Assembly (NCBI GenBank): GCA_965153455.1
Contig: OZ234494.1
Location: 7,006,001-7,070,000, forward strand
Reading direction: 5' to 3'
Origin: Sphagnum compactum
Lineage: Eukaryota
DNA: 64,000 bases
This document shows, piece by piece, positions 4,301 to 58,382 of the stretch. The notes under the pieces were generated by a model, which was not told the origin of the DNA, made no database searches, and saw only the letters and a list, made by a program, of their open reading frames with translations. The position numbers and the translations under genes are program-made. Each line of letters opens with the position of its first letter. Within the stretch, counting starts at the first letter, position 1.

Positions 4301-4959
4301 TTAAGGTTCCATTAGTTCAAATGTTTACGTAATTTAAGTTTGATGCAATTAATTGTGTAAGAATTACGTTGATTTAGATTTGGACAATTGTATTAGATAT
4401 TGACAATGTGGGTATTGTAGTTTTTCGAACTTTTTGGTTGCCTTAACCTAGGTGGTGGATGAGAAAGTATTTGCAATACTTGCATTTTCCAACCTTTTAA
4501 TGACCTAAATATAATTGGTAGCAAAAATGATATGGGAATTACAAGTTCTTGGGTTATTTGCATTTCAATTTTCTAATAGGTGACCCATCTCAACATGAGG
4601 GTATTGTTAAAACTTGGTCCACTGTGATTCAAGTTTCATCACATCATGATCGGTCCAATGTATGCAACACCTTCAGCCATAGTTTTGCCATTGTGATGAG
4701 AAATACTTAAAAGAATTAAAAAAAATAAAACAATGCAATATTTGCATTTGAAGCATAAAATCTTGGATGGATTTGTTATGTTTCAAGAAATACCTAAATG
4801 TTGCACATAAAATATCCATTGTTAATGATAAAAAATAAGTACGACGATAGTTTTGAATTTTGTTATAATTAGAAGAAAAATAAAGAAATTAGATTCATGG
4901 AATTGAAAAAAAAAAAATTGTAACAAAAAAAGGCAATAAAATTCTAAAAGGTGTAATAA

Positions 4960-5645
4960 ATTTAGCCAAAAGATAAAAGTTTAACCAAAAAGAGATATAG
5001 ATTTTACCAATAGATAAAAGTTTAGCCAAGAAAAATTAAAAGTTTTGCCAAGAGATAAAAATGTAGCCAAAAAAATAAATAAGTTTAGCCAAGAAGAGAT
5101 ATAAACTTTGCCAAGAGATAAAAGTTTAACCAAGAAGTGATAAAAGTTTAATTAGTAAGAGATATAGGTTTTACCAGAAGATATAAGTTTAGTAAAAAAG
5201 AAATAAAGGTTTTGTCAAGAGATAAAAGTTTAACAAAAAATAAATATAGATTTTGTCAAGAAATAGAAGTTTAGCCAAAAAGAGATAAAATTTTAACTAA
5301 TAAGAGATAAAAGTTTAGCCAAAAAGGAATATAGGTTTTGTCAAGAGATAGAAATTTAGCTAATAAAAAATATAGGTTTTGCCAAGAGATAAAAGTTTAG
5401 CCAAGAAGAAATAAAATTTTAGCCAAAAACTAAATAAATTAGCCAATAAAACATATAAGTTTTGCTAAGAGATAGAAGTTTAACCATGAAGAAATATAAG
5501 TTTTGCCAAAAGATAAAAGTTTAACTAAGAAAAAATAAGAGTTTTGCCAAGAAATAGAAATTTAGTCAAAAAAAGATAAGAATTAAGAGATTTGCCAAGA
5601 GGAGATAAAAATTTAGCCTGGAATAAGTATATGTTTTGCCAAAAA
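4960..5645. repeat. Degenerate A-rich minisatellite, ~20-bp unit (gccaagagataaaagttta-like)
   Basis: Dozens of imperfect copies of tttagccaa/tttgccaagagataaaag in tandem. Confidence 0.85.
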
Positions 5646-6889
5646 ATAAAGGATAGGTAAGGGATTAGTTGTTAGTTTGTAGGCAGGGCTAAGATATAGG
5701 CCAATAGGGTGGCTAGGTGAGAGGGTAGTATGGAGGTCAGGGTTGGGAAAAAACTAACAACAAAATAAAATGGTCAAAGGTCAGCAGCCAAAAAAGATTG
5801 ACTGTAGTAAAATGTTGGTTAATGTAGGGTGAAGAGGCAGATGAAAAACGCAGCTCACCTTACGGACAGAACAGCCAACTGGTGCAGTCACGGGTGCTGG
5901 TTCACTCTGGCCGGTTCATTATTCCTTATGTACTGATGATCGGCTAGCTAGCTACATAAAAGGTACCTGGACTGTCAAACCACGCAAACAACTAGTACAA
6001 ACTGGTTGCTGGAACCAACTACTAGCTCTCTCAAAAAGACTAGTTCATAAGACTCTGAGAAGACATGGCCTATTTGCACAGCTATGGTATTCACCACCTC
6101 CTATAATGAAATATCTTGAAAAGTTATAAAGATGCAAAGAGTGAGTGTGTTAAGACTTAAGATCAAGTTTTTTTAAGGAATTTTTTTGATGTAACCTAAG
6201 TGGTAATCATCCATAGGAAGATGTAACAAAAAAGTGACGATTGTCTTGGGAAAGATTAACCCAAATCTGGCTACAACCATATATGAAGTACAAGTTTTTA
6301 AAATCAACCTTTAGTATTAATGGCTACACACTAATAATTAACTATAGAAATCTAGCAATTTTTACGAATTTTTTCCCTCACTTCTAGCCATGCAAAGCAT
6401 CCAAAATCACTTTATTTATGAATTTTGAAACTTTCTTTTTGACGAGATTTCAGCAATGAAAAAAACCTGGAATTTAAGACATCTTCCAATATAAATTGAA
6501 TTTAGTGTCAAGTAATTTAATGCTTGGATAATACCAAATATACTTGGTCGCCTAAATTTGAAAGTTTGAAACTTTTCGACACTAGCCTTGTCCATATTAA
6601 TTGATTTCATAGATGGAGGAGGCACAAAAAAATTATTTCATGAATAATAAAAATGTAATACCAACTTCCAACAATCAACACTCAACTGCATAACACACAA
6701 AAAAAATAACACACAATAATACTCTACTCCCCCATTGGATTTGGAAACAAACTGTCAAATAATTAATTAAATTTTAAATCTTGACTTTAGCACTTGGTTT
6801 TTTAATTCTGAAATTTTGACAGGTAATGGTTATATACAAGGGGTGTGTCACACTGTGGCCTTGCCATTTGCATTAAAAAGTATCTTAAG

Positions 6890-25422: not shown

Positions 25423-28400
25423 TTATCTTGCTGGAAGTCTTGAACTCTGCAAGCACTCTACCTGAGCCACAAGTGAAAGATCACCCTCACAGGCTGTCAA
25501 CAGCAACTGTACTCTTTTGTCAAACTCTTCACTGCTCAACTCTGCCATTTCCTTTCTCGGTGATGGAGGCTGATACTCAAGAAGCTGCATCAACATACCC
25601 TGCAACAATACATAAACACTTCATTAGGGCAGCTTGCTTGAATAGGAGGCACAGAGAACTAAGGACCAGAGAACAACCTCTTGATCTCTCACAAAACATA
25701 GGTTTACCTGCTGCTGTACCCTCTGTGTTGAGCTTTGAACCAGAGTTGTGATCACCTTATTAAGTGCAAGCTTCTCCTTCACAACATTCCCTGCTATGAA
25801 AATATAACCAAAAATGTGATGCAAGGCTAATGCAAATGACATTGAGCCTCCCACAACTGCAGTTTCATATGCTCCTGATGTCCATGCAGAGACATACGCC
25901 TCAATCATCTGGTTGTTTGTCTGCATCACAACATGAAAATTCTAACAATGTCAGAATAAACACCATCTAAAATAGGACAGCTGAGATAACTTGCTTCTGA
26001 ATTTACAAACTGACTGTCTAAGAATAAACACTCCACATAGTCTTCACACTTGATTTGAAAGCAAATGTGAATTACCTCAAATGGGTACAGGTAACCCCAT
26101 TGTTGACCACAGCACTGAGTCAAAGGAGGAAGTAACTTGAGAACTTGTGCTTCAGCCAATTGGTGCCATATAGCAAGCCGTACAGAGTCTGGCACACCCC
26201 GCCGCAAATATATGGCTACCTGGCGACCAAAGACCAAATCACCATATGAAGAGGCACCAAATTGCTCTGCAAGAGTTTCTGCAAATGTGGTGTAGTTGCC
26301 ATCAATACAACAGATAAAATCCAGAGGCATGCTTGAAGGTGATTCATCCAAACAACTTGCCATATCTGCTCTGAACTCAGAGGTTTCTAAATGTTTCTTT
26401 ATTGGCCAGTTATCAAGCTGATGCCCGTAGAACTCCTGCAAGGTTCCCACCATTTTGTGGACATCCTCATGCAGGAAGAAATCATCTGCCAGAACAAAAA
26501 CAGTTGATAATGCATGGAGTTTTCTTATCAATGGTATTGTCACGATGAAGTTGCTTTCACTCTCCTCCATTGTCTCACTCAGAGCTTCCAAGCTCAAAAG
26601 CCATGAAATACCAGCTTTCACAACCTCTTCCATCTCCAGCTTTTCTTGTACAGCAACTGAAACTTTGTGACCTGTCAAGACTTCTATTCCTTGAGACCCA
26701 TCAAGAAAATGAGATATGTTAGTTGCCATAGGGCTTAGAAGCCAATGTGATGGCAGCGGCAGCCTCTGTCTTGCCCACTCTCTCACCAAGGAGTCGATTG
26801 TACTACAAGCATCAGTCCCTTCCTCCTCACACACAGTTGCAAGTCTCAAAGAGCCAAAAGTTGATTTTTCCCTTATTGATACTTTTGGATTGATATCTGC
26901 TTCTCTTTTTGAGGCTTTCCACAGTTTTGTTGATGTCCATGTATCCCTGAAGTCCTTCATGAGAAGGTTGGAGACCAGTTGAGGGTCCAAGCTGGAACTC
27001 AAAGTCAAGCCCTTCATCCAATCACTGCTGCCCTTAGATTCATCCCAGCTCTTCAGCACAATTTCCATGTTTTGGAACAAGAATGCTAGCATATCAGGGT
27101 GCAGCAGGGATTTCAAACAAGCTTGCTCTACTAGATCACCATTCTCAGGATCAGCAATTGCAATGATTCCAAACCAGCAGCTGATTCTCCACATAAAGTC
27201 AGAGGCCAAGACCTCCTCTCTGCCCATTTCACAATCAAGAGCCTGAGAAAAACTTCCATGACTTGGGGGTAAAATCTCCAGCAACTCTGCCACAAGCCTG
27301 GCACTAGCCTGGGCAACAAGAACCCCTTTGGACCAAGCTCCTCCTCCAACAGAACCCCAGCCCAATCCCAGACCAGGGGCAGGACCTCCCCTCCCACTTG
27401 CCTCACTAGACTGTAAGACATGACCATTCATGATCACTTCCTTCCCCACAAGGGCCAGCAAACCTCTCAACTCAATAGCACCTGAGGCCACTAAACCACG
27501 GTCCAAAACATTGTGGCCTTCAAAATTGTCACCCATGTATATTTGTAGACCACTCTCTGGTTTTGCACTTCGAATTAATTGGTCCAGTATGTTCAGTAGT
27601 CGCACCAGACCATGCAAGCAGCTAGTTGCAGCCAAAGACATTTCATAATCTCCCCTATGCCTGATAGCACACAAGCTTGCCAAGAGGGTACTCTTCTCAC
27701 TACCTAATTGTGCAGCTACTGAAGCCAAGCTCCCATAGTTGAGAACCCCATTTGTTGACAATAGAAGTCCAAGGTGAGGGATGAAGGTTGGCAACCATGG
27801 AATGTGTGACACAGTATTTCTCCCCTCTTTGTCCTCATTCCCAATCTTCTCACTGACTGTGGCAAGAAAATGAAAAAGTGATGCCAGTGTTCCAACCAAT
27901 TTTGCCCTGCTACCATCTCCTGTGGTCAAAGATTGTTCATCACCATGTGCAGCAATAACCAGTTCGTTAGTCACAGCAGACACAGATTCAGTTGACAACC
28001 ACCCAAGTGCTGTCTCAACCACAGGGATAGCAACCTGCCATGTCCAGTTGATATGGATGAAATCCTCAGTTTCAGTATCCAACATTCCTCCCTCTTGTGA
28101 GTGGAGTCTTGGCAGTGTTTGGGCCAGGCTTTCAAGCAAGATGTATGACTCCTGGGCCAGACACAATGCATCCACTTTCTTGTTGCTGGCAATGTCTTCT
28201 GATGACAAGGGGGTGAGCCAGAAACACAGAGCAGGATAGATGTCTGAAAACAGGGAAATGCCCATCTGATAGTGTACGCAGACACGCCATAGACGGAGTG
28301 ACGCAATTATTGTTGAGCGGACTCCTTCAAAACATTCCTCACCAAGTCTTGGGTGCAACTGCATGGGGTATCCCTGTCTGTAAAGTTCACACTGTGCCAC

Positions 28401-30282
28401 TTGCAGAGCTCCTGACTCTGCAAACCGAATGCAATTCATCCTACTTGCCTGTAGCAATACCTGCACATTAGATTAATCATGCACTGCATTAAATCACGAA
28501 CATGTACACAGCAAAGTCTTTGAACAGGCCCTTTATTGGCACACACCAATTAGGTGAATCCACAGGGTTTAGAGAGACGGTGATGCACCTTGAGAAGTTC
28601 AATGGCCTTTGTATGGGCAGGACGCAGAGCATCAACCTCAGCATCCAAGTCATCATCCATAAGAAAGAATTGTTGGATGATGGAATCCATCAGTCTGGGG
28701 CACTTCATGACAGCATCAGCAGCTCCAGGGGAATGTCGTGCAAGAGCTACTACCACACTCAGCAGTGGCTCATTGGCTCCTGCGATCTTCTCCACCTGTG
28801 TTGAATCCTTCCTGAGTTACTCAGAACAGCTGAAATACTGACATGTTCATTTTCCAGTGCAGCACAATGAAACAGTGATTTTATATTGTAGTACTGCTAG
28901 ACTATGAGTATTGCAAAGCAGCATAAAGAGAGGAAAGACCTCGAGAATAAAACGTATCCTGGGCAAGATGCCCATATGGATAAAACCAGCAGCAACATCT
29001 TTGATTGCAACTGTAGCATCGTCTCCAACTGTCTCTTCATCTTCGCCACCATCAACTTTGGAACTGACCCTCTCAGAGAATGGAAACATCTCATTTGTCT
29101 TGACATTGTACTTCCAGTGACCTCCTCCAAGAAAGCCCTCACTGTGTTTTGTGTGTCTTCGAAAGATAGGTGCCATAAATGTTGATATATCACCAGGCCA
29201 AAATGCCTGTCAAACTCACCAAAGAATGAATTAAGACTTTACCAAGACAGGCTTTGATATCCATTTGAAGCTTTCAAACTGCAACAAAGTAACTTGCCCA
29301 TGAAATATACTGCTGCTTCAAAACCACACCATGGGATAGTGAGAACCTCATGGAGATTGGAAATCGCTTCATTAGCAGAGCAGGTCAGGATTGCCTGTAG
29401 AGCCTTGGAACAGGCTACAACCACAGTGGTATGTTTGTCATCCAGTGCAAGTCTGCACCCGCAAGGCACTTGAACCAAGTTAGTCACTAGTATAATCATC
29501 CAACAAATATGGACACAGCAACCTTGACAACTTGCAAAAAGAAATGCTCAAGCTAAACAGAGTGATTGTGAACACCATGCCTGAGTGTTAAGACTAGCTG
29601 TGGCTCTGGACCAAGAGCATATGCCCACACAGCTTGCCAATCCACTTCATTGTGTTCTTCTACTTTTGAAGGTCTGAAAGGAAAGCACAGGCACTGGGTT
29701 TGAATTCCTGCAATGGCCTTGTTCAGCACAGCTGCAATCAGCTGCAGGGCAAACACTCGGTGACCTGGAAACTGCAAGGCGGACAACAATTGAAACCTGT
29801 TGGTTTGGAAAAGGATGCAAACATGGTGACACTGCTATATAGAAAGCAGCAGAACAACATATAAAAAACATGTCTGAAGAAGGGCTCACATACTGTGCTC
29901 CAAATGAGATCTGTTGCCTCCTTCAGACTGTAGCCTTTTGCAGCAGGATTCCCTTCTGACCGCACATAATCGCACTCAGCAATACTCTTCTCACTCAAGG
30001 TTACAGCAGAAGATGTGTCATCTGCAGACAATCATCAACAAAAGTCAGAGATTGTGCAGGATATACATAAGGAGAAAGAGGTCAGATTTTTTGATTTGTT
30101 GATGAGCATTCATAAACAAGAAGAAATAGAAAGAAAGTCAAGAAATTAAGAGAATTACTCAGCATCATTGGCGCACCTGCTTCATCAATACCCAAAACAT
30201 TGCCTTCCAGATCAAACTTGTGCAGCCTCACAGCCTCCACTCTCTCCGCCCAGGACTTGACCCGAACAGCTGAGCTTCCCAT
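25423..30282 (-). CDS. IYO: Transcription elongation regulator MINIYO / RPAP1 homolog, ~1265 aa from the first in-frame ATG; N-terminus appears missing
   Basis: Exons 30159-30282 (5' end uncertain; frame open to ~30470), 29894-30021, 29581-29771, 29347-29452, 28940-29206, 28589-28795, 26076-28460, 25708-25920, 25423-25599 splice in frame. Motifs: SWAERVEAVR..FDLEG, GYSLKEA (RPAP1_C), VDWQAVWAYALGPEPQLVLTLRLALDD, GRGGPAPGLGLGWG.GGG.WS, EWARQRLPLPSHW, EQFGASSYGDLVFGRQVAIYL. Confidence 0.92.
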
Positions 30283-35286: not shown

Positions 35287-38200
35287 TTAGGACTCTCCTG
35301 ACATCAAAGGGTCTTTAGGAGAAATCTAAAAACAATAACAGAATCACTCAACACAAATATACAATCTCTCTCAGACTAGTATCACAACCTATTCTGAACC
35401 TCCAAGAACTGTAGCTGCTCCATGAGCCGTTGTTTTGTATTCACCATTTTCAACCACCGCCTCTTCACCCGATTCTGCTCACCAGACAATGTCTTTCCCA
35501 CCTCATTATTTGTGTATTATCACTGCCAATCAGTCAAGACAAGAAGCAGGAACACCCACATGGAAGCAAGGCACCAGTTCTCACAACTTCAAACCAAGTA
35601 CAACACAGTAGACATCACAACACACCTATCCCAAAGATGCCATTTGGGATCTTAGGTGTGCCTGTACTGCATGCATGATCATGATGACTGAAAAACAAAA
35701 CCAGACAATACTAGGTTGTAAATGACCTTGGATGGATTACAGCTTTACTTAACTTGCTCAAGCCTTATTGCCAGAGAGACTTGAACATGATTTAGTTGGA
35801 AGTAGGCAATGGGAGAGAGATGAAGCTCACAGGAATCTGCAGAAGATGCCCAATGGTGAAAGAGGCAAGAACTGGATCATCAACACAACGGATGAGGCCT
35901 GGCACTGCTTGAGCCTGAATCCACCAAACCCTCATCAGGTTGGTGTCATCTATGACCAAGAGAGCATGAAACCAAGTATTTTGTTTCTATTCATGCCCTG
36001 GACATTTTGGATACCTTCAGCCTTGTCCAGAAAGAACTTTGCAGGACGTTTCATAAACCTTTCCAGCAGAAGTCAGACTGCAGAACCAGCTATGTCATGA
36101 CAGAATCTCAAACCAGGGAAAGTGCTGCGAATCTGTGAAACTGGGGTAACAAAACAACTAGATGATATAATGTTACAGGGACAGACTTTACCTCAGGAAC
36201 CAAAACACGGCACATATCAATGGCCTGCTTAGCAAGCTCCTTGACTAGCTCTCTTTCCACTCCAGATGCACAAGGTTCATCATCAAAGTACTCCACCTGT
36301 CACATAAGATCAGTATGTGAAAATTGGTAAATGTTGCCAGGAATGAACTAGAACAAAAGACACTTCAAAATCAGGGAAATTCATAGACGATGCTCTGATA
36401 AGCAGCCCTGAATCAGAAAAAGGCTTTGCAAATGACCTTCACAAAGGAAAACACAGAGGGAAAGATGGGCATCATAACAACTGGAAACAAAAGTACCTCT
36501 CCCACATTGAGACCAAAGGAGCCTGGTTGCACCCACATCCTGCTCAAACATCAATTTTCCAAGATGTCAATAAGTGGGGGCAATTCTGGGCCTATTTGGT
36601 GATCCCTTCAGCTACAGAGCATGACAGCAATGGTTCCTTCCAGAGAGTATCCTTGACTCGCATGGGAAGTGACAGAGGTCCATCCTGAAGGCAAAGTTGA
36701 CTGTAACACGACACCAAATTCCCAAAGTTGGAAGACCCTTCACAAAGGTTTCAATCTCACTTGCTTACCTTGGGCCTCAATGTCAAACACAAGTAGAAAA
36801 CATGCAAACCAACAACATGAATCTCAGCAGTTATAGTTTAGGTGGTTCTTAATGATGTAAACAGAAATTCAAGCGTAGTGCTCGTGGAGATTGGTTAAGG
36901 TGTGAAGAAACATTAAGCTTCAAAAATAGCTCATACCTTCTATCTAGTAATCGGAAGCGCTGAATGCCATGAGCAATTATAAATGACCGGCAATCCCTCT
37001 CAAACATGTGCACCTTCAAGTTCTGACACACCCACATCCTAACCAAGCTGAACAAACTGTGTTTGGTATATAAGAGTGTCTGACCACTTGTGTGATTCTA
37101 GGAATATGAAAACTAGGATTCAATGTTTGAAAAGAACTTCTGACCAGAAGTCTGTGCTAGCCAGCCTACAATTGCCAGTGGATCCTGAAGTGCATCTTTG
37201 TTACTTCTGTGCAAAGCTCTAATAACAAAACAAGCTTCCTCATCCTTCTGTGCCCACCTCTTATCCTAGATCCAAAGACAATGACTGATAAAAAATTTAA
37301 ATCTAAATGTCTGGATCCCCAACAAGACACATCAATCAACACAAGAACAATCCTTTAGTTGTGCAGTCTGTGCAACAGAACAAGCAGAGTAGGTCTAAAG
37401 CGCACCGCAACAGTACCGATTACATCTTCGTTATCCACATCAGGAGGATTCCATGATGTTACACTCATAGTCGACAATCCAAAAGGCTTTCCTTGCTCCA
37501 GACACTGGCGTACCTGCCCACAATTCAGCAGTATGGGAAAGTAAGTGGCACATTAAGGGGAATGTAATCTATGCAGGCCAGAAAATCTCAACCATGATGG
37601 TGAATAGGACACAAGAGGCTCATGGAGGCCCACAAAACAGCATACAATGCACAACTCAGCAACATTACCATCACTTTGGAGGAAAGGCTGCTTTTCTGTC
37701 CAAGAAACCTCTCAATTTCTTAGTCCTAATAGTGATGACAAAATGAGAGGATGTACTTACCATGAAGCGATAGCAAGGCTCATAGATATGGAAAGGAAGG
37801 GACCACCCAGGAAACAGGACCGCATCAAACAATGCAAGTGGCATCCTTTCTGGATTTGCCAACTCCTCACTTACAAAAGGGACCTTTCTACTCCTCAGAG
37901 CCCTCCTCCCACCATTATGTTCAGAAGACCTCTCTAATTCCTTGTTTTCAATGAGTGTGTCAGCAAGATTCTTCAAAGATGAGGGCACATGTAACTCTTC
38001 TGGCCACCCCTTCTGCTGTGATTGGTCTGCGTTAATTGGCACCCCTGTCCAATGTGCTGTGACTTTTTCAGATGGTGGCACAACCCCATTGATATGTTCT
38101 TTAGGCCCTGTTGACGATTCCTTAACGTCAACCCTCATGCCTTGAGTAACCTTCTGCAACAAACCATCATTCAATTCTGGCACATGACTTGTCCGTAAGA

Positions 38201-41200
38201 GGTGGGAGCTTAATTGATCCAAAATATTTGTGATACTTGTTGGATTTCTCCTTTCAGACTGTGACTGCTCCTCATCAAGAACCACATTGCTTGGAAGAAA
38301 AAGGCTTTTACTCACATCCACCCTACCATTCAAACAAAATAGGTCCTCAGAGCAATAGACATTGATTCGAGCACAACTAACAAACCTTCAAGTCAGAATC
38401 CAAATGTAAAAGCTATGGGATTTGTCGCCCTGAGTAGATAAAGCAATCCTTCAGGAAGAAGGCTCATAGAAATCATACTTGAGTAATGTGTAACCAGGCA
38501 TGCGTGGCATCCCCAAAGACATGCGCACAAATTGTGCAAATGCATCTACAGGTATCTCATCTGCCCCTTCTGTTTCTTACACATCCAAACACCCAGTGCT
38601 CGATTGTTAATGCAGCAAAAGCTGCTTATCAGGCCATAACATGACATAGTCCAAGAAAACATCGACCAGTAGTTCTAAGAAACATTGTTGGAGCCACACT
38701 TGTTTGGCCAAGCCATGCTTCCCAACAAACAGACTGCATCTCTTCTTCATTGGGAATCTGATCAAACACAGAAATCTCCATTACTGATTGTAGAAGAGAA
38801 GACACTATGTGCAAGAAAACCATGAAACACTGATGTCGTGGAATTTTTACTGCAATACCTTCAGAGGAAATGGCCAGGCCCACCACACCCTTTGTGATAC
38901 AGTGGGTACCATAAAAGAGTGGACCAGCCTTCTCTTCAGCAAGTTTAGCATACTGGCTGCTATTTTGTGTGGTGGTGAACAAAGGTGCCATGAATACACC
39001 TGCTCTGCAACGTGAACATCATCCAACATAAGAAACATACCTGTTTCCATCTCCCAGATAAACATCCTGCTAGTATGTGAAATCACCTGAGTTTGAATTA
39101 ATGAATTACACTTCTACTCTACAAAACATATAAAGCCCAAGTGCAGCAACAAAAATCTTCCCTGAGAAACACCAAGAGAGGTAACTTGAATTGAAAGTTC
39201 AAGAATTACAACCTTAGCACACACATCTCTCCTTGGAACATTGACAGAAATCCTCTATTTGAAACAGCAAGAAGTCAGATCCCACCTGGTGCTCTCTGGG
39301 AAGACTGTTGAAAGCCTCTGATGGAACTCTGGAAAATCAAAACCTGCAAAGCTCAGAACCACAAATAAACTGATGAGACAAGAGCAACAATGAGAAGACT
39401 GTCAGAAAGCCTAAAATAGTATGATGAAGAACATATCTGCAGCAAACACCTATCTAAACTTGATGAAGTCAAACCAGGACACCTGGTGATTGAGGCAGAA
39501 CTACCAGGTGTGGTTTACATCCATTAAAGTAAGGTAGACATAATGAAAGAAACAAACCTGGAGAACCCAACATGAGGATGTGGGGGTTGTTGGTCATGAC
39601 TGCCCTTTCAAGGTTGGGCAGATGTGGGAGCCCTGATGTAGGAGAAACAAAACCAGCTGCCTGTGACCCTGGCATATGGCCCATGCAAAGCACCATAACA
39701 TACTTGTCATCCTCATTTTCTGAATCGGAATCTGTATCTTCTTTGTGTGCACCAGTCCCAGGTGTTTCAAGGGCATCCTCTAGAGGGATGACGACCTCCC
39801 CATCCTTACTGGGGCCAAGACTCTCTTCTCCGACAACTGCACATCAGCAACCCTGTCACAGAAATCATCACTTGGGCTGCACTATCAGCAATGTTCAAAA
39901 GAAGGGACAAAATCTTGGAAACACAGTGCCTGTATCTCACTGCATGCAACACCATGAAGACTGAGGTGCAGACATGTGATAGATTATATGACAGAAAGAG
40001 CACAATAGAAATAATTTCAATCAGCTGCTAACTCAACAAACACTTGCCTATAGAAGTGCCTAATTTTGGATCCCAATTCTGGTTTGAAGTTTGCTGGTTG
40101 AGTGTGCCCTGTGACATGGTATTGACTGCATGCAATAACACAGGTTCAGGCAAGTCATTCAGAAAACCAAGCAAGCTTGTTGTCTCTCCCGCCATCTTAG
40201 GGTTGTCTGCTTCAAAGGCAAGTAAATCCCTGTTCTCTTCAACCTCTTCCCTTATGGGAGCTTCAGAAGCACAAATGTCTTTCCCTTTCAACTTTGCATA
40301 ATCTTCACAGAGTTCCTCCCAGTCCGTGAGTGTCCCCTCATCCTCATCACTCACTATGTCCCCTATTCCACCTGCCACCCTCCTCTCTGCCTGCCCCTTC
40401 TCAGATCCATCTTGCTCTACTTCATGGACTAAAATCCCACATTCATTCACCAAACATTCTCTAGTGGATATGTCACGTCCTTCATCCTTATTCCCAAACA
40501 TCTCCAATGGATTCAATCCTTCTTCGTTCATGCCATTACCTTTACCTGTAGCAAGAGGTGGAGTACCCCTCACCCCATCCAAACCATCAGCTGAGGAGTT
40601 TGCCTGTAGTCGTGCACCTCCATTTTGCCCACAATTGTTTCCTCCTGTACCCGAGGGTCTGTCCCCTGTGAAGTTCGAGCTAGCTCTGCAACCGGCATTC
40701 TCTGTTCTCTCCCCTTGCCCTGACCCTAGTGGTTGCATATCATCACCGTACTCAAGCCCTAGATTCTCCACAACACACCCTATCAAGGGCACGATCTCCG
40801 CCTTCTCCTCCCCTACGTCTAACGCAAAGCTCGAGCTCTCGACGGATGCATTCCAGGAGCTAGAGCTTGAGGAAGGAGAGGAATTAGGGCTTGGCGGAGA
40901 AAGGGATTGAGGAACGGAGAGAGCTTGGGGGATTTCTTGAGATCGAACCTCCGCTGAACTGGAAAAGTGGGACGCAAGCTCCTGGACTGCAAGAATCGCT
41001 GCTTGCGTGGGTTTCGAGATAAAAACAACTGCCAGTGTGGGGGGCGAACGAGGGCCGAGGAGGGACCGACCGTGAGCCCACGCAGCTAGAGGCGATTCTC
41101 CCTCCTGCATCCCACGCAGCACCAAGGTAGCGAACCTGAATAATCTTCCGTCTTTAGCATTGTGCTCCGCGATGAAGCATTGCTCAAATCTCGGCGAGTT

Positions 41201-41302
41201 TCCAGTACTGCTGTGGCGCATCCGAGGCGCAAAACTGCACGATGGTACACGGCATGCTATCAACTTGGCCCACCGCCGCGTCTGCACCGCCCTGAGCATC
41301 AT
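35287..41302 (-). CDS. ~1015-aa protein: organellar-targeting-like N-terminus + split FIST-N-like domain + C-terminal Lon protease N-terminal (LON_substr_bdg/PUA-like) domain
   Basis: 14 in-phase exons: 40048-41302, 39558-39836, 39286-39343, 38859-39004, 38667-38783, 38479-38569, 37761-38322, 37406-37513, 36937-37022, 36497-36539, 36192-36296, 35831-35914, 35400-35474, 35287-35325 (junctions in 38300-38900 are less certain). Lon-N motifs: MPLALFDAVLFPGWSLPFHIYEPCYRFMVRQCLEQGKPFG, IGTVA, RSFIIAHGIQRFRLL, GEVEYFDD, SFTIGHLL, KRRWLKMVNTKQRL. FIST-like motifs: PTLAVVFIS, VPLIGC, MVLCMGHMPG, ILMLGSPGFDF..F.QRLS.VFPESTRAG, LFYG....KGVVGLAIS. Confidence 0.85.
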
Positions 41303-41916
41303 TCTCGGACCAAATCCAAGCACACAAAGCAGCTTGCCCAGGCACTCTTCGAGTATTTATGTCATAGAGTCGTCAAATTCTTGCTTGCAGAACCACAAGC
41401 CGCTTGTTGTCCCCGATTGCAATTGGCTCTATAACGCTGTCTGCAGCAAGAGCAGATGTTGCAGTTGCTGCAGATTTTGACCAAATTGCGAGGATTTCCC
41501 GATCGCACACGAGAGAGAAGGAGTGCGCACATGCGCTTGAATTCGTCCGCTCGGCCGCGAAAACGGTCTGACAACCGATCATCCGCTCCGTCCACAGGTC
41601 GAAGTGAGAGCAGACTTGCATATCCAACCACTCACCAGCGCAGTATCCCAGGGGCTTCACAACCCAACCAAAAAAATTAATTAAAAACACCCCATTCCTC
41701 CACCCTCTTGTTAGGGGCTCCACAACCCCAAATAAAAATATTGTAAAAAACTTATGTGATTAAATGAACTAAATTCCCGTAAATTATAAGAAAATGGTGT
41801 GGCCCATACTTTCATAGTAGTTTGCATTTTTCAAAATGGCACAATCATCTCCTAACTCTTCATCTTCTTCTTCAAAAAAGGTTTCATACATTCTTCTTCA
41901 TTCTCCTAAGCGTTCA

Positions 41917-45058: not shown

Positions 45059-47208
45059 TCACTTCTTCAAAGAGTGTCCTATTCTTGGAGGCTGGTGAGG
45101 AAGAATTGGTTTTGCTACTGGCCTTGCTGAGGCTACCACTGGTTTCCTCCGCATTGCAGCATGCATTTTTGCTTCATTACTGCATGAGATAGGCAATTGG
45201 TCAGACAAGGGACACAGGTTTTAAGAACTGGCAGCAACAATTTTATATGCAGACTATATATATCCAAGGTTTACATTAGAACTAGACATGCACATTAGAA
45301 AATTACCTGTTTACATACTCCATCCTTGCCTTCTTCATTAACCGGCCCTTACAGTTTGCAAACCGACCCATAGGGGCACTACCTGTCCTCACATAAAACA
45401 GAAGACATCACTTCATCTTATTCCGGAGGGAGACACAAGTTCTGGAGAAATTGTTTTGGGCAGGCAACTGCAAGGCCATCTAAAGCCCAGAACTGACCTA
45501 AAATGCTATAAACCTCAAGCTACCATTGCAAACATATCAAACAGGGTTTGCATCAATAATTTGCACCCACACAAGGTTGATCAGAGATACCTCGGCCACT
45601 TCCAGGACCACATTTACTTCGCTTGCTGTCTGGTGGAGTAATCTCACATGACTGTGTTTGCCGAGTTGCTTTCACTGCAGTTACAAGGACAATATTCTTC
45701 AATTTGCTCACAATCAACAAGTTCCCCAACAAAGCACAAAAAACTTCTGGAAAGCAACCTGGAAAAACTCAGTTGCCATGAACAACCCAAACAGAGAAAC
45801 TGTTGATCAGAACAAGCACAAGGTATCTCACAGGATTTTGCCTCCTTGTAGAGCTCCTTCAAGCGGTCTACACCTCTTCTCTGGATTTCTTCTTGCTCTT
45901 TGATCTTAGCCTGCAGACCAGCAGTTGATCGATACAAATTACATACTTAGTATAAACAAGATCAAACTACTGCCAATTCTACACAACATAAAGAAGGAAA
46001 CCAAACCCTAACTTTGGGCCACTTAGGGAACCAAACCCTAACTTATTCCTAATGCATTCTGAGACTTAGGGCCACTTAAGGTCCAGGGTCCAATGAAATA
46101 GAGCAACCCTATTGGCTGAGAACCATAGGTTGGACCCATAGCCTCAAGATGAGGTTCCAAGACCCACAAGTGGCAAATTGAGGCTAAACCTACATGGCAC
46201 CATTTTGGAGGGAAAATCAATTGGTATGGACCAAGAAATAGAGCTCAAAGGAGAGCTCATGATTCAGAAACCAAGACAGAAGCTAGAGTCCAAGGCGGAG
46301 TCCAACTCACACATTCAATTTGATTCAAATGAGACCAAACTGGTTCCTAAGAATCTTGACCTGGACCCCCATCTAAAGTGGGCCTTAGGGGACACCAAAA
46401 CCAAAAAAGAACCCTGAAGGAGTACCCTCAGGGCACCACTCCCTTTAGGATGTCCTTCGAGCAAAAAGGGCGTCCCTTCAGTTCTCTTGAGTTTGCTCCC
46501 TTAGGTTTTTCAGCCTCAGCAAACTTCAGGCCTGAAAACACTAAGGGAGCAAACTCAAGAGTACTGGAAAAAGCCCTAAAACCTCGGACTGCATGATTCC
46601 CACACCTGAGATTGTTCATCAAGATACAAATCTGCCCATTACCCCAAGAGGCAAGCCACCTTTAAACCTGGTACAGCTGCTTCCATTTGAACTTGCACTT
46701 CCGATCCGCCATGCGCCGCTTCACCATCTCCACAGCATCATTTCCGAACTTGCGGGAGTAACACTTGAGCCAGAGCTCATCGGTGATAGGACTCAAATCC
46801 CTTCCCTGCACATATCAACAGTAGGGTTATGTTGTTCAGTAGACGACATATGTATGTGAACACGAGTGACCTAGATCCCAAGCCGCATGTAAAGCTTATG
46901 AAATCGCGCTACAGCACACAACCACAAAATCTGGAGCCCCATGGCTTCGCTTCCGAAGAGCATACGTATGCTCCCATACCACAAAAAGAACAAGCACACC
47001 GCACCTGGCCACAACTAGTCCGGAAAGAGAGAGAGAGAGAGAGAGAGAGTCGAACCTCTGTGCTCGACTCGATATGGAGGAGTTGATCGGCATCACAGTG
47101 CGGAAGAATCACCTCCAACAAACTCATGTCTGTGTGTCCCACATCTCCTAGATGCGACAGATTATCTATTGCACTCCGCACACAAAGCTCCACCAAAGAC
47201 AACACCAT
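45059..47208 (-). CDS. Elongin A-like protein (RNA polymerase II transcription factor SIII subunit A family), 216 aa
   Basis: GT-AG exons 47056-47208 (MVLSLVELCVRSAIDNLSHLGDVG...LPHCDADQLLHIESSTE; BC-box-like SLVELC), 46668-46805 (GRDLSPITDELWLKCY..KFG...KFKWKQLYQ), 45832-45910, 45591-45674, 45307-45382 (GRLMKKARMEY), 45059-45179. Total 651 nt, in frame. Confidence 0.93.
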
Positions 47209-49719
47209 GGTTACCCACTTGTTTTCAATCCACAAACCAAGAATCCCAAAAATTAGCACCACAACACCACCACCTCCTCTCCTCCTCCTCCTCGCCCTCA
47301 AACAATCAAACACCTATTTGCTACTACAAACCCTCTCAACTTCCTGCATTTTCGAGCAAATCCTGCACTAAAGAGGTCTCTGAAACAATGATTACAGTCT
47401 CCATCTCTCAGACACACCAGAAACATGATCTGCAGACGGTTAGGAGGAGGAAATGGCGGAGAGAGGCAAGAGGGAAAAGGGAAGCTCGATTTTTGCTTCT
47501 GCACACTCTACGTCGTCTTAACTTATACTGTCGACTCCACGGTTTGAATTTAACTCTGGTTAATAACTCAGGTGCTGATCTCTGTTACTGCGGTTAGAAC
47601 TCCGGTGGCACAGCTGTTTGACAGAACACACGTCCTAAGATTCAGGTCCTGATACGAAGAGAGACCTCAAAAACACTTTGAGAACCTCAAATCCAGGAGT
47701 CGTCGTGTTGGAGGATGAACACATGTATCCAAGACCTTTATTTATTTTATTTTATTATAGAGTACTAGTGGGTACCCGTTAATTGTTTCAACCAATTAAT
47801 AACTCTTGTTGTTGTTCTGTCTGTGTACTATATAAGCAGTGTTGGGCGGGTATTTGATATGTTGAATAACCTCCACGTCTGGGTATTTGTAAAATGAGAA
47901 TTAAAAGAATTAAAACTCGGAGTCAAAGAATCACAAGTTCCGGGTATTTGAAAAAAAATTCAGAGTCAAAGAATTGCTGCTGGTTCTGGTTATTTCAAAA
48001 AAACCTCACAGAACTATCGGGTTTCACGAAAACTCGAAAAAGAGGAGCCAGGCAAGGTTTTGGGCGGTTATTTTACTTTTACAATTTGCGATCTGTGTTT
48101 TAGGACCTCGACAGACGGACAGACGAGATCTGGGTTTTTGTCTCCTCGAATTGGTACTTCGAAATTGACTCCTCAAATTGACACCTCGACAGACACACAG
48201 ACAGACTTAGTGAATTAATATATATGATAGTAGCTTAAGGAATTTTAATAATAATAGGTCTATTTTTATGTGAGGATTTTTGAAATATGATATTTTGGCT
48301 TGTGTTGAAACTTGAGATTAGTTATAATAGAGTTATAATACCTTGAAGGATTTTGGATTCTTTTAGAGGATTTTTTTGAAGATTATATTTTTGCATAGTG
48401 AACTAATTGAGTTTCCATAATTCTCCTTTTGCCTTAAGATAAATTTTAATGTAAATTGGCAAAAAAAATTGAGTTTTGAATTTAAAAATAGGTTATTAGT
48501 AACAACATTATAGATAAACTTAGGTGTTTTTTCAACACTAATAGATACCTTATATCCATCAAAATATCCCTCCTAGGAAAGAGCAGGGATATTATGCCTA
48601 CTTATAGGTCTAAAGTCCTTCCCACCCACAAGGAGTAGGTGTAGGACCTTTTTTCCCTTCATATGCCTAGTGATCTAGGTCTGTTTAGGTTCATGATACC
48701 TTAATAAAGCCCATGGGTGGGACATAACCCAAAATGTGGGGCTAAACTTGGTTACCACCTCGTCCTACTTTGAGAATGCCCTGATTGTGAGGCTTTTTAC
48801 CTTATGATTTTATTTTTTCCAAATTACAATTTATTCACAATTGTTTGGTTGCCATAGCTTTTTGAGTGTTAAGGTAAAGCCCTGAGGGTTTGGGACTTTT
48901 GCCTAAATAAAGGGCCTAGGCCAATGCCATAGCTAAGTCTAGACTCACATTTTGTAAATGTCCCTTGCCCCTAGGCTTTACCCATAGTCAAGCAAGCATT
49001 ATGAGGTGAACATTCTCATGAACCTAAACATTTGTAGATCACAAGTTGTAGGAGCAGCTCTTACACATACTTCTTATAAGTGTGAAGGACCTTATGCTAT
49101 TATATATGTGCTATGCCTACATGTTTGAAGGGTAGGATTCTTCACATATTCTTAAGGGATGGGTGTAAGGACATTAATTTTTTGGAGAGATATTCATGAA
49201 CTTAAGGTAAGCATGTCCATGGTTTCAAAAATGGGTCATAAATTTTTGAAACCATTGTTTCCCAAAACTCAGTTAGGTTTACGACTTCAAATGATTCATC
49301 AATGCATAATAGTGGCAATTCAATATGAGGTATAATCACACATTTGCCTTTCAACCCTAAACATGAAATGTTCCACATCTAGCATTCCGTGATATTTGTG
49401 GTTTATGTCAAAATGGGACATTATTGTTCCAAAATCCATCAAACCCAACTTGCTCAATAGGGTTTATGTCTTTAATTTCACCCGCATTCAAAGTGGTTGT
49501 CAAATCGTCCAATTTAGTTTCCGGCACAATAAAGTCTTCATTGCAAATTGGGTTTATATGAGAATTACTTGGAAAAGGGGTTTATGCATGACATTTTACC
49601 AACACCCCTTGTTGAAAAAAGATTAGAGTGATTTCAATCCCTAGCTATAATATCCCCAAAAAACTTCTTGGAAGTACCACATTTCCAAAAATATTTTATG
49701 ATAGACTTTTACATTGTGG

Positions 49720-53400: not shown

Positions 53401-56400
53401 AGCTTTGCTTTATATTCATTATTTAAAAATCCATGTTACATTTGTAGATTGTTAGTTTGACATTTTTTTATATTTTTTTCTTATACACTTTCTTTTGGAA
53501 ATGTTGGATGTAGTTGATTGAAAGATGATGGATTTGTTATTCATGAATTTTAATTTATAGATATTTCACAACTTTTGTTTTGGATAGAGGTTTGGAATAG
53601 GCGATGCTAACACTTGATCTAATAATATTTATTAAATTTTATTGTTACTTTCATGGTAATGTAAATTATGTGGGAACATAAGATAACATGTTAGAAACCT
53701 CTTAGGGAACCTTCAACCATAAGGGATATTGGAGGTAACATCATGGAGAACATGTGAATGTAGAACGAATGGTATATGTATTAAAATCATATAGGATTAA
53801 TTGGGAGCACTTGGAAACATAAAAATGATTATTTAAGGTGAATGAAGATATAATTACGTCACATGGTGAAAACACCAAATTTGGTTCCTTTCACTTCTAA
53901 CATTTGGAAAGTCCAACCCCCAACCAAATCTTGTTAAATGTTTTTTAATATTTAAAATTATATTTGTAATTGTGTTAAAACTTAACCATGGTATGAATTC
54001 TCAATTAAATAAATGTTACTCTTGTGAAGATTGATCTTGCAATAGATATCTAAATTCACCAAATTGCTTGTTTAAAAGGGACAAGTCACAAATTGAATTG
54101 GATAATGTTTTCTTGCAAATAGTTGCAATACATAATTTAATTGTGTTTGACAAGTCGCTAATAGCCATTTTTCTTCTAGTGAAATGTTATGCATGTGGTC
54201 CCTAGATAAAATTGTTCATTGGCATTGCCATGGGCCCATCATGTTTGTATTGTGCCTATGTTATGTACACTGGTGTGGGCATTGTAAATTACATGTTCAA
54301 ACACCACATGCATTCGGTGGCTTCCATTATTGAGGTTGGTGAAAAAGTTAAATAAGGTGTGTTAATTCATGCATACCTAGAAAGTGATTTCATTTGACCT
54401 TACCATATGGTTTTAATCTCACCCAACATTGAAGTTTTTAGTATCTTGCACTAGTGAAAACCATAGGTATTGCAACTATTGTTCATAAAATTATCGATGA
54501 TATATAAAGTTTTTTTCATTGTTTAGATTCAAACAAGATGTCAATGTTGATTTTGGACATGTTTAGATCACCAAATTTTGCTTCATTTAATCACACAATA
54601 TATTTTTTATGTATGTTTCAATTTTATTCAAAATATGACCATAAAATGGAAGGACAAATATATAATTCAATGTTGGATATAGTCAAAATCATCAAACTTA
54701 TGGATGGTTGTAGAGCCAATATTTTTTTATTTAAGTAGGATTAATTACTTATAAGCCTAAATGATAGTTTAAAATTAACGAATTTCACACATTTTTGTAA
54801 TTTTTTCATTTAAAACTTTCTTTAAAAAATATGGCTACATATTAACAAATGCATAAAACCCAACTTCCATGTTTATAACCTAAACCTTGCATATAATAGC
54901 TTATTACAATATGCTTGAAATTCATTTCCAAACATGTTTTTTGAACCATAAATGTTTTCCAAAAGAAGACATTTCAGAATTCAAAGTTCAAAGCAATAAC
55001 TCTTCAACTACATTTCATCCATGAATAAATTTCATTTGTTGCACGTAATGAAATTGGTGCTTATTTCTAAGTAATGGACAAAGCTTGAATATGAATACAT
55101 TGAAATTGGTTTATTTTTTGGAACTCAAATGAATTTAAACTTTTGTTCATTAGCTAGTCAATTTTTGTCCATTAAAGTGTCCAAGACACAACTTAATGTT
55201 TAACAACGTTTGTTGATGACATGGACAATATGGAAATGAATTATTGTAGGATGAAATATCATTTGAAAGGCTTCCTTTGGTTGTCATAAATTTCAATTAC
55301 AAGCTAACATTTTCCCATTTGGCTACCCATTATGAATCATGGTTTTTTTTTGCCTTGACTTATTATATTAAATGTCAAGTTGATTGCCATTGAAACATGT
55401 ATTATTTTCGCATTAACATTCACATATGTTCCTCCAAATGATAAATCATGTCTTGTCCATCTACTTATAAAAATATTTGGTGCTAGAAGTTTAATTAGGA
55501 TATCATTAAGTTCATTTATGTATTTAACATTCATTAATCATTAAACGAGAAAATATTAACAACTTGTAACATTGATGTTAAAGGTCATAAATTATGTTTC
55601 ATGCACGGGTTCATGCATAGAAAAACATATTTTTACGTTTGATAAATTAATCAATAATTATTGATTTTGTGTCATGAATGGTTTTTTTTGGGGTATTGAT
55701 TAATGGGAATATCACCACTTCTTCAAATTGGAAAATAATGAACAAACACATGAGATGGGACATAAATAACTTCATGATTCAATTAATTTTTTAATTTTAA
55801 TTTTCTAGTCAAAAGATTGGATTGTTTTATCTTTACATTGCATACCACAAGCCTACTACTTCCTTTCGAAAGGGTCATGTTTTGTCCTTAAAAACAAATG
55901 CAATGCAATTGCGTTGCAACTTTCCCCAATGGTTTGAACCTAGGTCCCCATATGATTTTTTGGTCATTAATTGACCCATTCATTGAAACTATAACCACAT
56001 GGGTTGTAATTTATGTAAGATCTAACATCACACAATGGTGAATTGAACAACCATTTGCAAGCTGGATATGAGCCGCAACCACTTAACATTTTGGTTTGAT
56101 CTTAATTGTAAGAACATTTGTATTTAAAAATGGATAAGCATGACATGATTTAGTAAAGATAATTTCATGGAAAAGACCCCAAAAAAATCATTGAACAAAA
56201 AGAATTAAATGTTTTGTCAATACATTTTATTTTATTTTCATGTAACTCCTTTATTTAACAAAACATAAAAGCATAAAAAACTCAAAGATTCAAACAATAT
56301 TTTACCCACAATTACAATTTGGATGTTCATATAATGTAGGTTTTTGTCAAACTTTTATTTTGTCCATAATCATTAGCAACATGTTGACTAATGTCATATG

Positions 56401-56861
56401 ATTGCATTTGATCATTTTAACATTGCATTAAAGTTATTTACTGATTATATTTGGTTTCGTGTGTTTGAACATGATTGAGTTTATAACGAAAATTGTATAT
56501 ATATGTGTGTGTGTGTGTGTGTTATAATGTCATCACAACAAAATATAAAACAATCTTCCATACCAAATTAGATATCATTTGTAGTTGATAAAAGATCGTC
56601 ACAACTTTTGATATATTATGATATCCATGCATGATATATAGTGAAGAATCAATCAAATTGTGTTTTTTACTATTTTATTCCAATAAATAATGGTCAAGTA
56701 ATAGTAAAATAGTTGAAATAAGGAGGTGGTCTCAATATAAGGTTGATATGGTTGATAGAAAGTAATTCCATAATAACTTCGACATATGGAGGTTGACATT
56801 TGGTGTTAACCAAAGCTAGGCGACACAAATATTATCGTTGACCATCAATGCATTTGACCCC

Positions 56862-58016
56862 TCAACCTCCACAATTGTTGGGATCGGTTGAAAGGTTTAC
56901 ACAACGTTTGTTACAACAATATTGTTGCGATGGGCATTTAATGCCACAACCCCCACAATTGTTTGAGTCAAAAAGAAAATCTTCAATCAACCAACAAATA
57001 TTATGACAACAAGTGAATTGCCCTAGTAGAAGTAGATTTGAACAATTTTCAAGACTTTCACAAATTTGTGAAGGGGGAGGAGGTGGTGGTGGTGATGGTG
57101 ATGGGGGAGGGGGAGAAAGCAAAGGAGGTGGTGATGGTGGAGGTGGTGGTGATGGGGGAGGGGGCGAAGGAGGAGGTGGTGATGGTGGCGGAGGGGGAGG
57201 TGGTGGTGGTGATGGCGGAGGGGGTGAAGGAGGTGGCGGTGGTGGAGATGGAGGCGGCGGTGACGGTGATGGGGGAGGTGGTGAGGGAGGGGGAGGTGGT
57301 GAGGGAGGAGGAGGTGGTGGTGATGGGGGAGGGGGCGAAGGAGGAGGTGGTGATGGTGGCGGAGGGGGAGGTGGTGGTGGTGATGGCGGAGGGGGTGAAG
57401 GAGGTGGCGGTGGTGGAGATGGAGGCGGCGGTGACGGTGATGGGGGAGGTGGTGAGGGAGGGGGAGGTGGAGATGAAGGAGGAGGAGGTGATGGTGGAGG
57501 TGGAGATGAAGGAGGAGGAGGTGATGGTGGAGGTGGAGATGAAGGAGGAGGAAGTGATGGTGGAGGTGGAGACGGAGGTGGAGGTGGTGATGGGGGAGGG
57601 GGTGAGGGAGGTGGTGGTGGTGATGGTGGAGGTGGTGATGGTGGTGGAGGTGGAGATGAAGAAATTGAAGGTGGCGCTACAAGTCGACAAACACCATCCA
57701 AACAAAAAGAATTGTCATTACATGGATCTGCACAATGTCCACAATTGTTGGGGTCATTTGAAAGATTTGTACAAGTTTCATTGCAACATGTTGGTTTTGA
57801 ATTGGGGCAAAATATTTTGCCACATGGAATTTGAAGTAAGGTTCTCGATATTTTGATTGAATCGCTTAACAAATAACGACTTCCAATAATTTTTTTAACA
57901 TTCATTGGATTTGTTTCCATAGCTTCAACAAAAGTGACCGTCAATTGCATGGAAATAAATGCCCAAAAAATGGAAAAAAATGAAATCAGCACAAAATTGA
58001 TTCTGAAGTTTGCCAT
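56862..58016 (-). CDS. Secreted STIG1-type cysteine-rich protein with a central Ser-Pro(3-8) extensin-like domain (384 aa, intronless)
   Basis: Hydrophobic signal peptide (MANFRINFVLISFFSIFWAFISMQLTVTFVEA); CC...C.NL.NDPNNCG.C...C.....C..G.C repeat; ~200 aa of SPPPP repeats; two further Cys repeats (CCHNIC...DSNNCGGCGIKC, CCNKRCVNLSTDPNNCGG*). Confidence 0.88.
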   Translation of the reverse strand: MANFRINFVLISFFSIFWAFISMQLTVTFVEAMETNPMNVKKIIGSRYLLSDSIKISRTLLQIPCGKIFCPNSKPTCCNETCTNLSNDPNNCGHCADPCNDNSFCLDGVCRLVAPPSISSSPPPPPSPPPPSPPPPPSPPPPSPPPPPSPPPPSLPPPSSPPPPSPPPPSSPPPPSPPPPSSPPPPPSPPPPSPSPPPPSPPPPPPSPPPPSPPPPPPPPPSPPPPSPPPPSPPPPPPSPPPPPSPPPPSPSPPPPSPPPPPPSPPPPSPPPPPPPPPSPPPPSPPPPSPPPPPSPPPLLSPPPPSPSPPPPPPPSQICESLENCSNLLLLGQFTCCHNICWLIEDFLFDSNNCGGCGIKCPSQQYCCNKRCVNLSTDPNNCGG

Positions 58017-58382
58017 TTGGAGAGTTTTCGAAAACTTGTACTATTTGATCCAAGAAAACAAAACATGTGTTTTGTAATTTATCAACTATGATTGACAAGA
58101 AGTGGAAGAACAAAAACAATAAAAGTTATACCTATCAAGCAATCAAATACTTGGGACCTTTGTACAAGATGTGCCACAAGTTTCCACATGACATTATAAA
58201 GGTTGTTGACCCATTGTTGTACATTTCAATGAACTTGCATGTCATATTTATACATAAGCCTAAGAAACATACGAATCAAATTGGTGTTTGATGGTACAAT
58301 ATTGAAGTGGGACCAAGTGATGTGAGGCAACGTGCATTGTTCATCATGATTGCCTAGTCCACTTACCATGTATATTTTTGTC

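Follow-up and report, generated by a model that had tools for sequence, protein, structure and literature searches.

A Sphagnum gene encoding a FIST-N-like half and a protease-free Lon N-terminal domain on one transcript

FIST and the Lon N-terminal domain (Lon-N) are both recognition modules of protein-degradation machinery, the former in the SCF-FBXO22 ligase, the latter in Lon, in the LONRF ligases and in cereblon. Whether the two are ever joined in a single plant protein, and what such a protein might do, is the question raised by a locus of Sphagnum compactum on contig OZ234494.1 (GenBank assembly GCA_965153455.1), of which positions 7,006,001 to 7,070,000 of the forward strand were analysed; this whole stretch of 64,000 nucleotides (nt) is called the window here, and all positions below refer to it. 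A first-pass annotation, made from the letters alone, had described a FIST-N domain fused to Lon-N behind a probable organellar targeting peptide. What is found at this place is one expressed nuclear Sphagnum gene, a single transcript of which combines a FIST-N-like half with a protease-free Lon-N half. The gene is already publicly annotated as an uncharacterised Lon-N protein, and the FIST/Lon-N architecture is not described in the literature searched.

The gene lies on the minus strand and consists of multiple exons, with its first in-frame ATG at 41302 (MMLRAVQ...) and its stop codon at 35382-35384. The stop-to-stop frame 40028-41356 opens the protein at this ATG with the very residues that had been quoted in the first-pass annotation. 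A single exon frame led to P0001, a 99%-identical annotated protein of S. compactum with 831 amino acids (aa), which tblastn maps along 41302-35385. Its 90% cluster has 34 members; the 15 of them listed include five Sphagnum species, "Lon N-terminal domain-containing protein" (UniRef) being the sole informative name among these 15, and alternative annotated Sphagnum models of the cluster have 829, 833, 803 and 698 aa. Seventeen RNA runs shared 33-37% of the sampled words of the stretch; those mapped were three metatranscriptome runs, as contigs (X1-X3), and one stranded poly(A) run, as raw reads (X24). From X24, 610 reads mapped (602 at >=99% alike), the first mate being on the plus strand for all, which denotes minus-strand RNA in most stranded libraries. 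Twelve introns are supported by X24 reads and X1-X3 contigs, 11 of them GT-AG and one GC-AG on the minus strand, with intron ends assigned after a shift within the permitted alignment ambiguity. The exons joined by RNA number 13 and encode 831 aa, identical to P0001 at 831/831 residues; a second RNA-supported form, in which intron 40126-40539 is retained, has 12 exons and 969 aa. These two forms take the place of the 14 exons and about 1015 aa first proposed: that model is partly favoured at 40126-40539, where the 414-nt intron is only partly removed, whereas its exon count and length found no support, and its low end at 35287 falls about 95 nt inside the 3' untranslated region (UTR), X24 read depth running on past 35200.

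Spliced reads and contigs cover every junction between the two halves and chain exon 1 to the last exon. As all inter-exon junctions have spliced reads, the halves are linked piecewise in one transcript; the reads are short, such that no single full-length molecule is demonstrable with them. Spliced reads occur at all four of the junctions 39004/39286, 38569/38859, 38322/38479 and 37513/37761 of the first model, whose claim of a single gene thus stands: the RNA junctions connect all exons, by which a mis-joined annotation of two genes is ruled out. It is likewise extremely unlikely that two genes, or an extra internal transcript, exist and that the Lon-N half is also or only made alone. Such a separate Lon-N product would fit the X24 read depth, which climbs about threefold (16 to 44) 3' of about 38190, the five read molecules that end at about 38193, and the occurrence of RNA forms truncating the protein before Lon-N. 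Of the latter, the alternative junction 38154-38478, by which the frame is shifted, has 8 X24 reads versus 10 for the main junction, and 39000-39285 has 4 versus 1 (here the contigs favour the main junction), the resulting products of 477 aa and 405 aa being without Lon-N; introns 38570-38858 and 39005-39285 are selectively retained in the middle of the gene, with depths of 5.7 and 6.5 in the poly(A) run X24, whereas four other introns show depths of 0-0.7, and both retained introns break the frame. The read ends at about 38193 could be an internal transcript start for a Lon-N-only product or merely 3' bias, which is usual in poly(A) libraries. Against a separate Lon-N gene stand the spliced reads and contigs at each junction between the halves, and the orthologues in four other plant lineages, each annotated as one protein containing the two halves.

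Concerning the C-terminal half, the Lon-N motifs noticed at first sight correspond to a Pfam match: PF02190 (LON_substr_bdg) is the sole significant family in P0001, covering residues 634-825 and profile positions 5-198 of 200 with 57 bits versus a cut-off of 28.7 (E 3.3e-15), and it is also above cut-off in five orthologues. The protein ends 6 residues past this domain. In the Pfam scan of P0001 there is no AAA+, protease, RING, TPR or F-box family, the F-box being missing even at E up to 10, and the first-pass statement that AAA+, protease and RING domains are lacking holds; the same tool picked up RING and TPR in LONRF-type proteins. The next row besides PF02190 (AFF4_CHD, E 0.34) is noise, and the scan of seven single exon frames returned only a sub-threshold Lon-N match. 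In a first AlphaFold model, Lon-N reaches a predicted local distance difference test score (pLDDT) of 70-94 in most blocks; the Lon-N half agrees in fold with solved Lon N domains in structure comparison, and the match list of Foldseek on the whole model is filled by Lon-N chains. Sequence searches of the PDB with P0001 and with a family profile found only Lon-N and cereblon chains and no FIST chain, these methods being too weak for the N-terminal half.

The N-terminal half is recognised with more difficulty. Neither P0001 with three Sphagnum isoforms nor any of six orthologues has a Pfam FIST (PF08495) match, even with E allowed to reach 10; of the two profile matches expected at first, LON_substr_bdg was thus found and the standard FIST match was not, the latter requiring profile-profile comparison or bridging sequences. 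For the former approach, a bacterial FIST set was assembled from one phylum, in which the Pfam model matched in 37/121 genomes: 29 loci were considered, the locus of one genome flagged as unpublished being set aside, 28 frames obtained and 26 kept on a match to the seed hidden Markov model (HMM), two wrong-frame picks being dropped; 3 of the 26 proteins were confirmed as Pfam FIST-N plus FIST_C. With hhalign, an alignment of eight land-plant sequences (A1) matched this profile in two places. Residues 320-441 of P0001 (block C) align with FIST columns 84-197 (E 3.6e-8, probability 95%), and the first block with its I-G-C motif aligns with columns 8-80 (E 6.5e-4), the two alignments being in the correct, collinear order. 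The controls remained far above these values, with E 0.22-0.34 for reversed profiles, E 0.25 for the Lon-N part, and best values among 30 column permutations of E 0.055 (part 2) and 0.15 (part 1). A profile of 13 green-lineage N halves, in which algal relatives were included and the canonical protein P0174 (see below) was excluded, matched the 26 bacterial proteins with E 4.2e-12 and a probability of 97.6% over 191 collinear columns; this alignment covers FIST columns 5-201, bridging the inserts, and hence the whole FIST-N domain (controls: reversed profile E 0.098; best of 20 column permutations E 0.54). By hmmsearch, the bacterial FIST HMM reached at most 13.8 bits in the eight A1 sequences, at collinear positions and not significant alone.

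The bridge is provided by P0174, a protein of 647 aa from a metagenome collection, for which Pfam reports FIST-N (E 1e-22), FIST_C (E 1e-14) and Lon-N (E 8e-16). When P0001 is compared with it by BLASTP, two collinear matches result, one in Lon-N (E 5e-22, 37% identity) and one in block C (E 4e-7); the latter corresponds to P0174 residues 106-177, i.e., to the second half of its Pfam FIST-N. Both proteins have the order FIST-N, linker, Lon-N, whereas P0174 differs in possessing FIST_C and a Pfam-significant FIST-N, in being without long acidic inserts, and in its open N-terminus. In an ESM Atlas query with residues 30-500, each of the three best clusters displayed carries PF08495, at scores of 0.86-0.87 and with 167-171 shared features, and the ten best family-bearing matches all share a family or clan, which by the calibration of the tool is only a lead.

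Structure prediction adds little in this half. The first AlphaFold model has a mean pLDDT of 45.2, with residues 36-117 at 74-83 and residues 322-345 and 433-460 at roughly 52-78; a second model (Selaginella first, 12 sequences) has a mean of 42.5 and a worse N half. Fold comparison of the low-confidence N half of model 1 gave a match to FBXO22 (PDB 8ua3) at 11% identity, which is absent with model 2, and shorter matches to YjgF/Rid proteins, chorismatase and barbiturase. One might alternatively take the N half for an enzyme whose fold is of the YjgF/Rid, chorismatase or cyanuric-acid-hydrolase class and which Lon-N merely tethers. We regard this as highly unlikely: the sequence homology of the N half is specific to FIST, both by profile and by the Pfam-verified P0174, and such enzymes are known fold neighbours of FIST according to the FBXO22 structure paper. 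It is scarcely credible, either, that the FIST resemblance is spurious and a lineage-specific domain of another fold is attached to Lon-N; the missing Pfam match, the low hmmsearch scores and the low-confidence models would all fit, whereas four kinds of test point to FIST, collinearly and with clean controls, and P0174, with the same architecture, has a Pfam-significant FIST-N and FIST_C.

As far as sequence comparison can tell, the N half is genuinely a FIST-N domain, though a strongly diverged one, split by an acidic insert and with FIST_C replaced. The insert is long and disordered and follows the G-C motif of the domain. FIST_C (PF10442) has no Pfam match, and the tail compared with the FIST profile by hhalign gave E 0.13 and 0.5; instead, about 45 conserved residues (DAF.EF.R..LG...LFLP) follow FIST-N, a tail common to the compact algal relatives. 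Of the FIST-N resemblance first claimed, what remains is therefore real but remote, revealed by profile-profile comparison and bridging, and confined to FIST-N. Two cysteines in this half, Cys176 of the I-G-C motif (40775-40777) and Cys331 of L-C-x-G-H-M-P-G in exon 3, are invariant in the eight land-plant sequences; two algal relatives have another residue in place of Cys176 (I-G-M, V-G-A).

How far does this combination extend? An exhaustive representative search returned 1204 proteins at E up to 0.001, nearly all matching Lon-N only, the best 150 of which were listed; longer Lon-N matches were Pfam-scanned in four rounds of 9, 19, 10 and 15 proteins. The relatives comprise the lycophytes Diphasiastrum (920 aa) and Selaginella (823 aa), the liverwort Riccia (853 aa), the fern Adiantum (a 471-aa fragment), and three proteins in unnamed assemblies, plus Sphagnum fragments. 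Relatives of a compact algal type, with the same block order and without the inserts, are P0178 (479 aa), P0078 (512 aa), P0182 (549 aa) and an MMETSP-derived cluster (P0176, 496 aa), to which a Cymbomonas protein and a Chara fragment are to be added. In the same cluster as P0174, the fragment P0046 carries FIST_C and Lon-N. The canonical form, FIST-N plus FIST_C plus Lon-N, is represented by P0174 and the reduced form by the proteins of green algae, liverwort, lycophytes and fern. Because this canonical form and the compact algal relatives exist, FIST/Lon-N is an uncharacterised eukaryotic family and not a one-off fusion. No seed-plant protein was met among the named matches to the N half (within the best 150 of 1204 listed, not all of them named), which is no proof of loss. 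P0173 and P0141 have no Pfam FIST at cut-offs of 1e-4 and 1e-5, the only ones applied to them, and word-based homologue searches with P0001 regions 30-500 and 320-485 returned only P0001 itself, which reflects the sensitivity of the tool. In Chara braunii, P0038 (694 aa) begins with a partial Lon-N-like part similar to this family, followed by matches to retroelement aspartyl proteases, and probably represents a chimeric model that spans an inserted transposon.

The literature search found no paper pairing 'FIST domain' with 'Lon N-terminal', nor FIST with PF02190 or LON_substr_bdg, and for 'FIST domain' combined with plant names none of the best ten matches contained 'FIST domain'. The first-pass remark that the architecture is undescribed agrees with this result, whereas P0174 and the algal relatives show that it is not unique to this gene.

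Despite the likenesses to known systems, there are several differences from each of them. The bacterial FIST-N plus FIST_C proteins, the family to which NosP belongs, share profile-profile homology over the whole FIST-N with the G-C motif, whereas they are about 380-430 aa long and carry FIST_C. NosP is known for haem and nitric oxide (NO) sensing, and bacterial FIST is regarded as a ligand or NO sensor; NosP-type sensing cannot be inferred for the window protein, and haem binding by it would be speculation. From FBXO22 the window protein differs in being without F-box and FIST_C, i.e., without the third repeat, and in the low identity given above. LONRF1-3, ubiquitin ligases of the order TPR-RING-Lon-N, share the protease-free, C-terminal Lon-N, and the LONRF type is the closest Lon-N outside the family among the matches listed (P0027 and P0028, 38-40% identical); the window protein is without RING or TPR and would therefore have no ligase activity of its own. 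Cereblon has a thalidomide-binding domain, no Pfam match to which is found in the window protein, and cereblon is matched only weakly at the sequence level (E 0.003-0.7). The bacterial stand-alone Lon-N proteins (1zbo BPP1347, 7cay) consist of a single domain, whereas the Lon-N of the window protein follows FIST-N and ends the protein; in LonA, the N domain is followed by AAA+ and S16 protease domains, both missing here. LONRF2 is described as recognising misfolded proteins (PMC10226518), and the Lon-N of Lon as binding unfolded or degron-bearing proteins (PMC8835725).

Concerning the N-terminus, the Arg-rich, acid-free start quoted in the first-pass annotation was borne out (see Table 1 for the first acidic residue). 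All 6/6 complete orthologues have an extension of 41-83 residues ahead of the first conserved block, with 7-13 Arg plus Lys and 1-6 Asp plus Glu; these extensions are Ser/Thr-rich in all six, such that the composition is kept while the sequence is not conserved, and four of the six start with M-(L/M)-R. A basic, hydroxylated, acid-poor extension fits an organelle presequence. Organelle targeting is thus suggested by composition only, mitochondria being more likely than plastids because most orthologues start with M-(L/M)-R.

Within exon 1, the in-frame intron 40126-40539 has 5 spliced X24 reads and, in the same run, a retained depth of 4.1 versus 11-13 in the flanks; in X1, one contig is spliced here (depth 14.2) and another keeps the intron (8.6). 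The retained sequence contains an acidic motif with a Trp (Table 1), and the same alignment columns of A1 read SDWDYL, SDWEGV, SDWEDL, SDWEHL, VDWEEM and EDFKAL in the orthologues. The motif is present in 6/8 A1 rows, five of them with an aromatic-x-x-L/V core, the surrounding acidic insert being otherwise unconserved; it is missing from the Sphagnum row, which represents the 831-aa form, and from the Adiantum fragment, and the retained intron of the window adds a further instance. The Sphagnum models seen (831, 829, 833, 803 and 698 aa) appear to omit 40126-40539, which encodes the one conserved motif of the insert. An acidic run followed by aromatic-x-x-L/V (W-x-x-L) has what we take to be the shape of an ATG8-interacting motif.

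What, then, might a protein do that combines two recognition-type modules with long disordered linkers and is devoid of catalytic domains? With less than even confidence, we see in it an adaptor or regulator that takes part in protein quality control, probably inside an organelle, without being catalytic itself. The protein would be imported, into mitochondria rather than plastids; its Lon-N would be the site at which clients that are unfolded or bear a degron are bound, as in Lon and LONRF2, and its FIST-N would recognise either a partner protein or a small ligand. A cue might thereby be linked either to the handing-over of clients to organellar proteases or to the shielding of clients from these proteases, and splicing of the in-frame intron could add or remove the acidic Trp motif and so change the set of partners. 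The label 'ligand-gated proteolysis adaptor' of the first-pass annotation is speculation.

Several points weigh against such an organellar FIST/Lon-N adaptor. The window protein and 11 relatives of the green lineage (P0016-P0019, P0023, P0024, P0072, P0078, P0176, P0178 and P0182) showed no Pfam FIST in scans with cut-offs of E 1 or 10; both AlphaFold models are poor; and with FIST_C missing, the domain may differ in folding or action from the canonical FIST of three repeats. The FIST of FBXO22 is described in the structure paper as a protein-recognition module that recruits substrates and has no obvious ligand pocket, which weakens the label 'sensor'. Few as the reads are, the two frame-breaking junctions and the two frame-breaking retained introns occur in them as often as the productive forms, and an ATG8-type motif would make little sense within an organelle.

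A rival reading is a cytosolic or organelle-surface receptor, in which D-W-E-x-L would be an ATG8-interacting motif linking clients of Lon-N or FIST-N to autophagy, with splicing as a switch. The conservation of the Trp motif in an otherwise unconserved, disordered acidic insert and the existence of both the spliced and the retained RNA would suit this receptor, which we nevertheless consider quite unlikely: the motif is no more than a putative ATG8-interacting one, the basic, acid-poor N-termini argue for import and against a surface receptor, and the retention of intron 40126-40539 (about one third of the depth) is no higher than that of the two frame-breaking introns. Unlikely, too, is a more far-reaching version of the organellar adaptor, according to which the green lineage would have kept a protease-free sensor-adaptor whose reduced, two-repeat FIST-N reads a ligand, the redox state (by Cys176 and Cys331) or a partner and gates client binding by Lon-N in organelle quality control, the spliced Trp motif recruiting one partner more, perhaps ATG8; this system may have been lost as a whole in seed plants.

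A conserved protein in which FIST and Lon-N are joined without any catalytic domain would constitute a novel kind of adaptor in the proteostasis of plants and algae, especially if it is targeted to an organelle. The FIST of the green lineage has diverged beyond the reach of Pfam, and FIST may be under-counted in plants and algae. As the family occurs in a liverwort, mosses, lycophytes, a fern and algae, it is open to knock-out study in model bryophytes.

Table 1. Features of the FIST/Lon-N gene in the window (positions in the window; residue numbers of the 831-aa form unless stated otherwise)
Feature	Position	Strand	Basis and remarks
Coding region	35382..41302	-	13 exons (831 aa) or 12 (969 aa); UTRs past both ends; RNA junctions, tblastn, identity to P0001
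Presequence-like stretch, aa 1-38, basic, Ser/Thr-rich	41189..41302	-	composition; first acidic residue at position 40
FIST-N part 1, aa 36-180, conserved block PTLAVVFISKPT and I-G-C motif (40775-40783)	40763..41197	-	hhalign; pLDDT 74-83
In-frame 414-nt intron within exon 1 ('exitron')	40126..40539	-	its splicing gives the 831-aa form, its retention the 969-aa form
Acidic motif T-L-T-D-W-E-E-L	40310..40333	-	inside the retained intron; residue 324 onward of the 969-aa form
GC-AG intron, only non-GT donor of 12	39837..40047	-	plus-strand ends CT..GC; 8 X24 reads, 1 X1 contig
FIST-N part 2, aa 320-441, exons 3-5: LCMGHMPG...LPHLPNLE...NNPHILMLGSPGF...GVVGLAIS	38860..39720	-	hhalign; BLASTP
Family-specific tail, aa 442-485: DAFAQFVRMSLGM...SLFLP, in the position of FIST_C	38283..38859	-	conserved from algae to land plants
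Poorly conserved low-confidence linker, aa 486-633	37839..38282	-	pLDDT <50 for residues 461-638; alignment A1
Complete Lon N-terminal (substrate-binding) domain, aa 634-825, exons 7-13	35403..37838	-	Pfam PF02190

The neighbouring frames on the minus strand match RPAP1 TPR repeats (25926-28472, E 3e-11), Elongin A (46909-47313, E 2e-5, below cut-off) and a STIG1-like family (56862-58040, E 5e-14), the last coinciding with a strong GC skew of 0.46 at 56001-58000; these neighbours are unrelated nuclear genes. At 4001-6000, the window has a GC content of 0.29, with a GC skew of 0.27 and an AT skew of 0.13.

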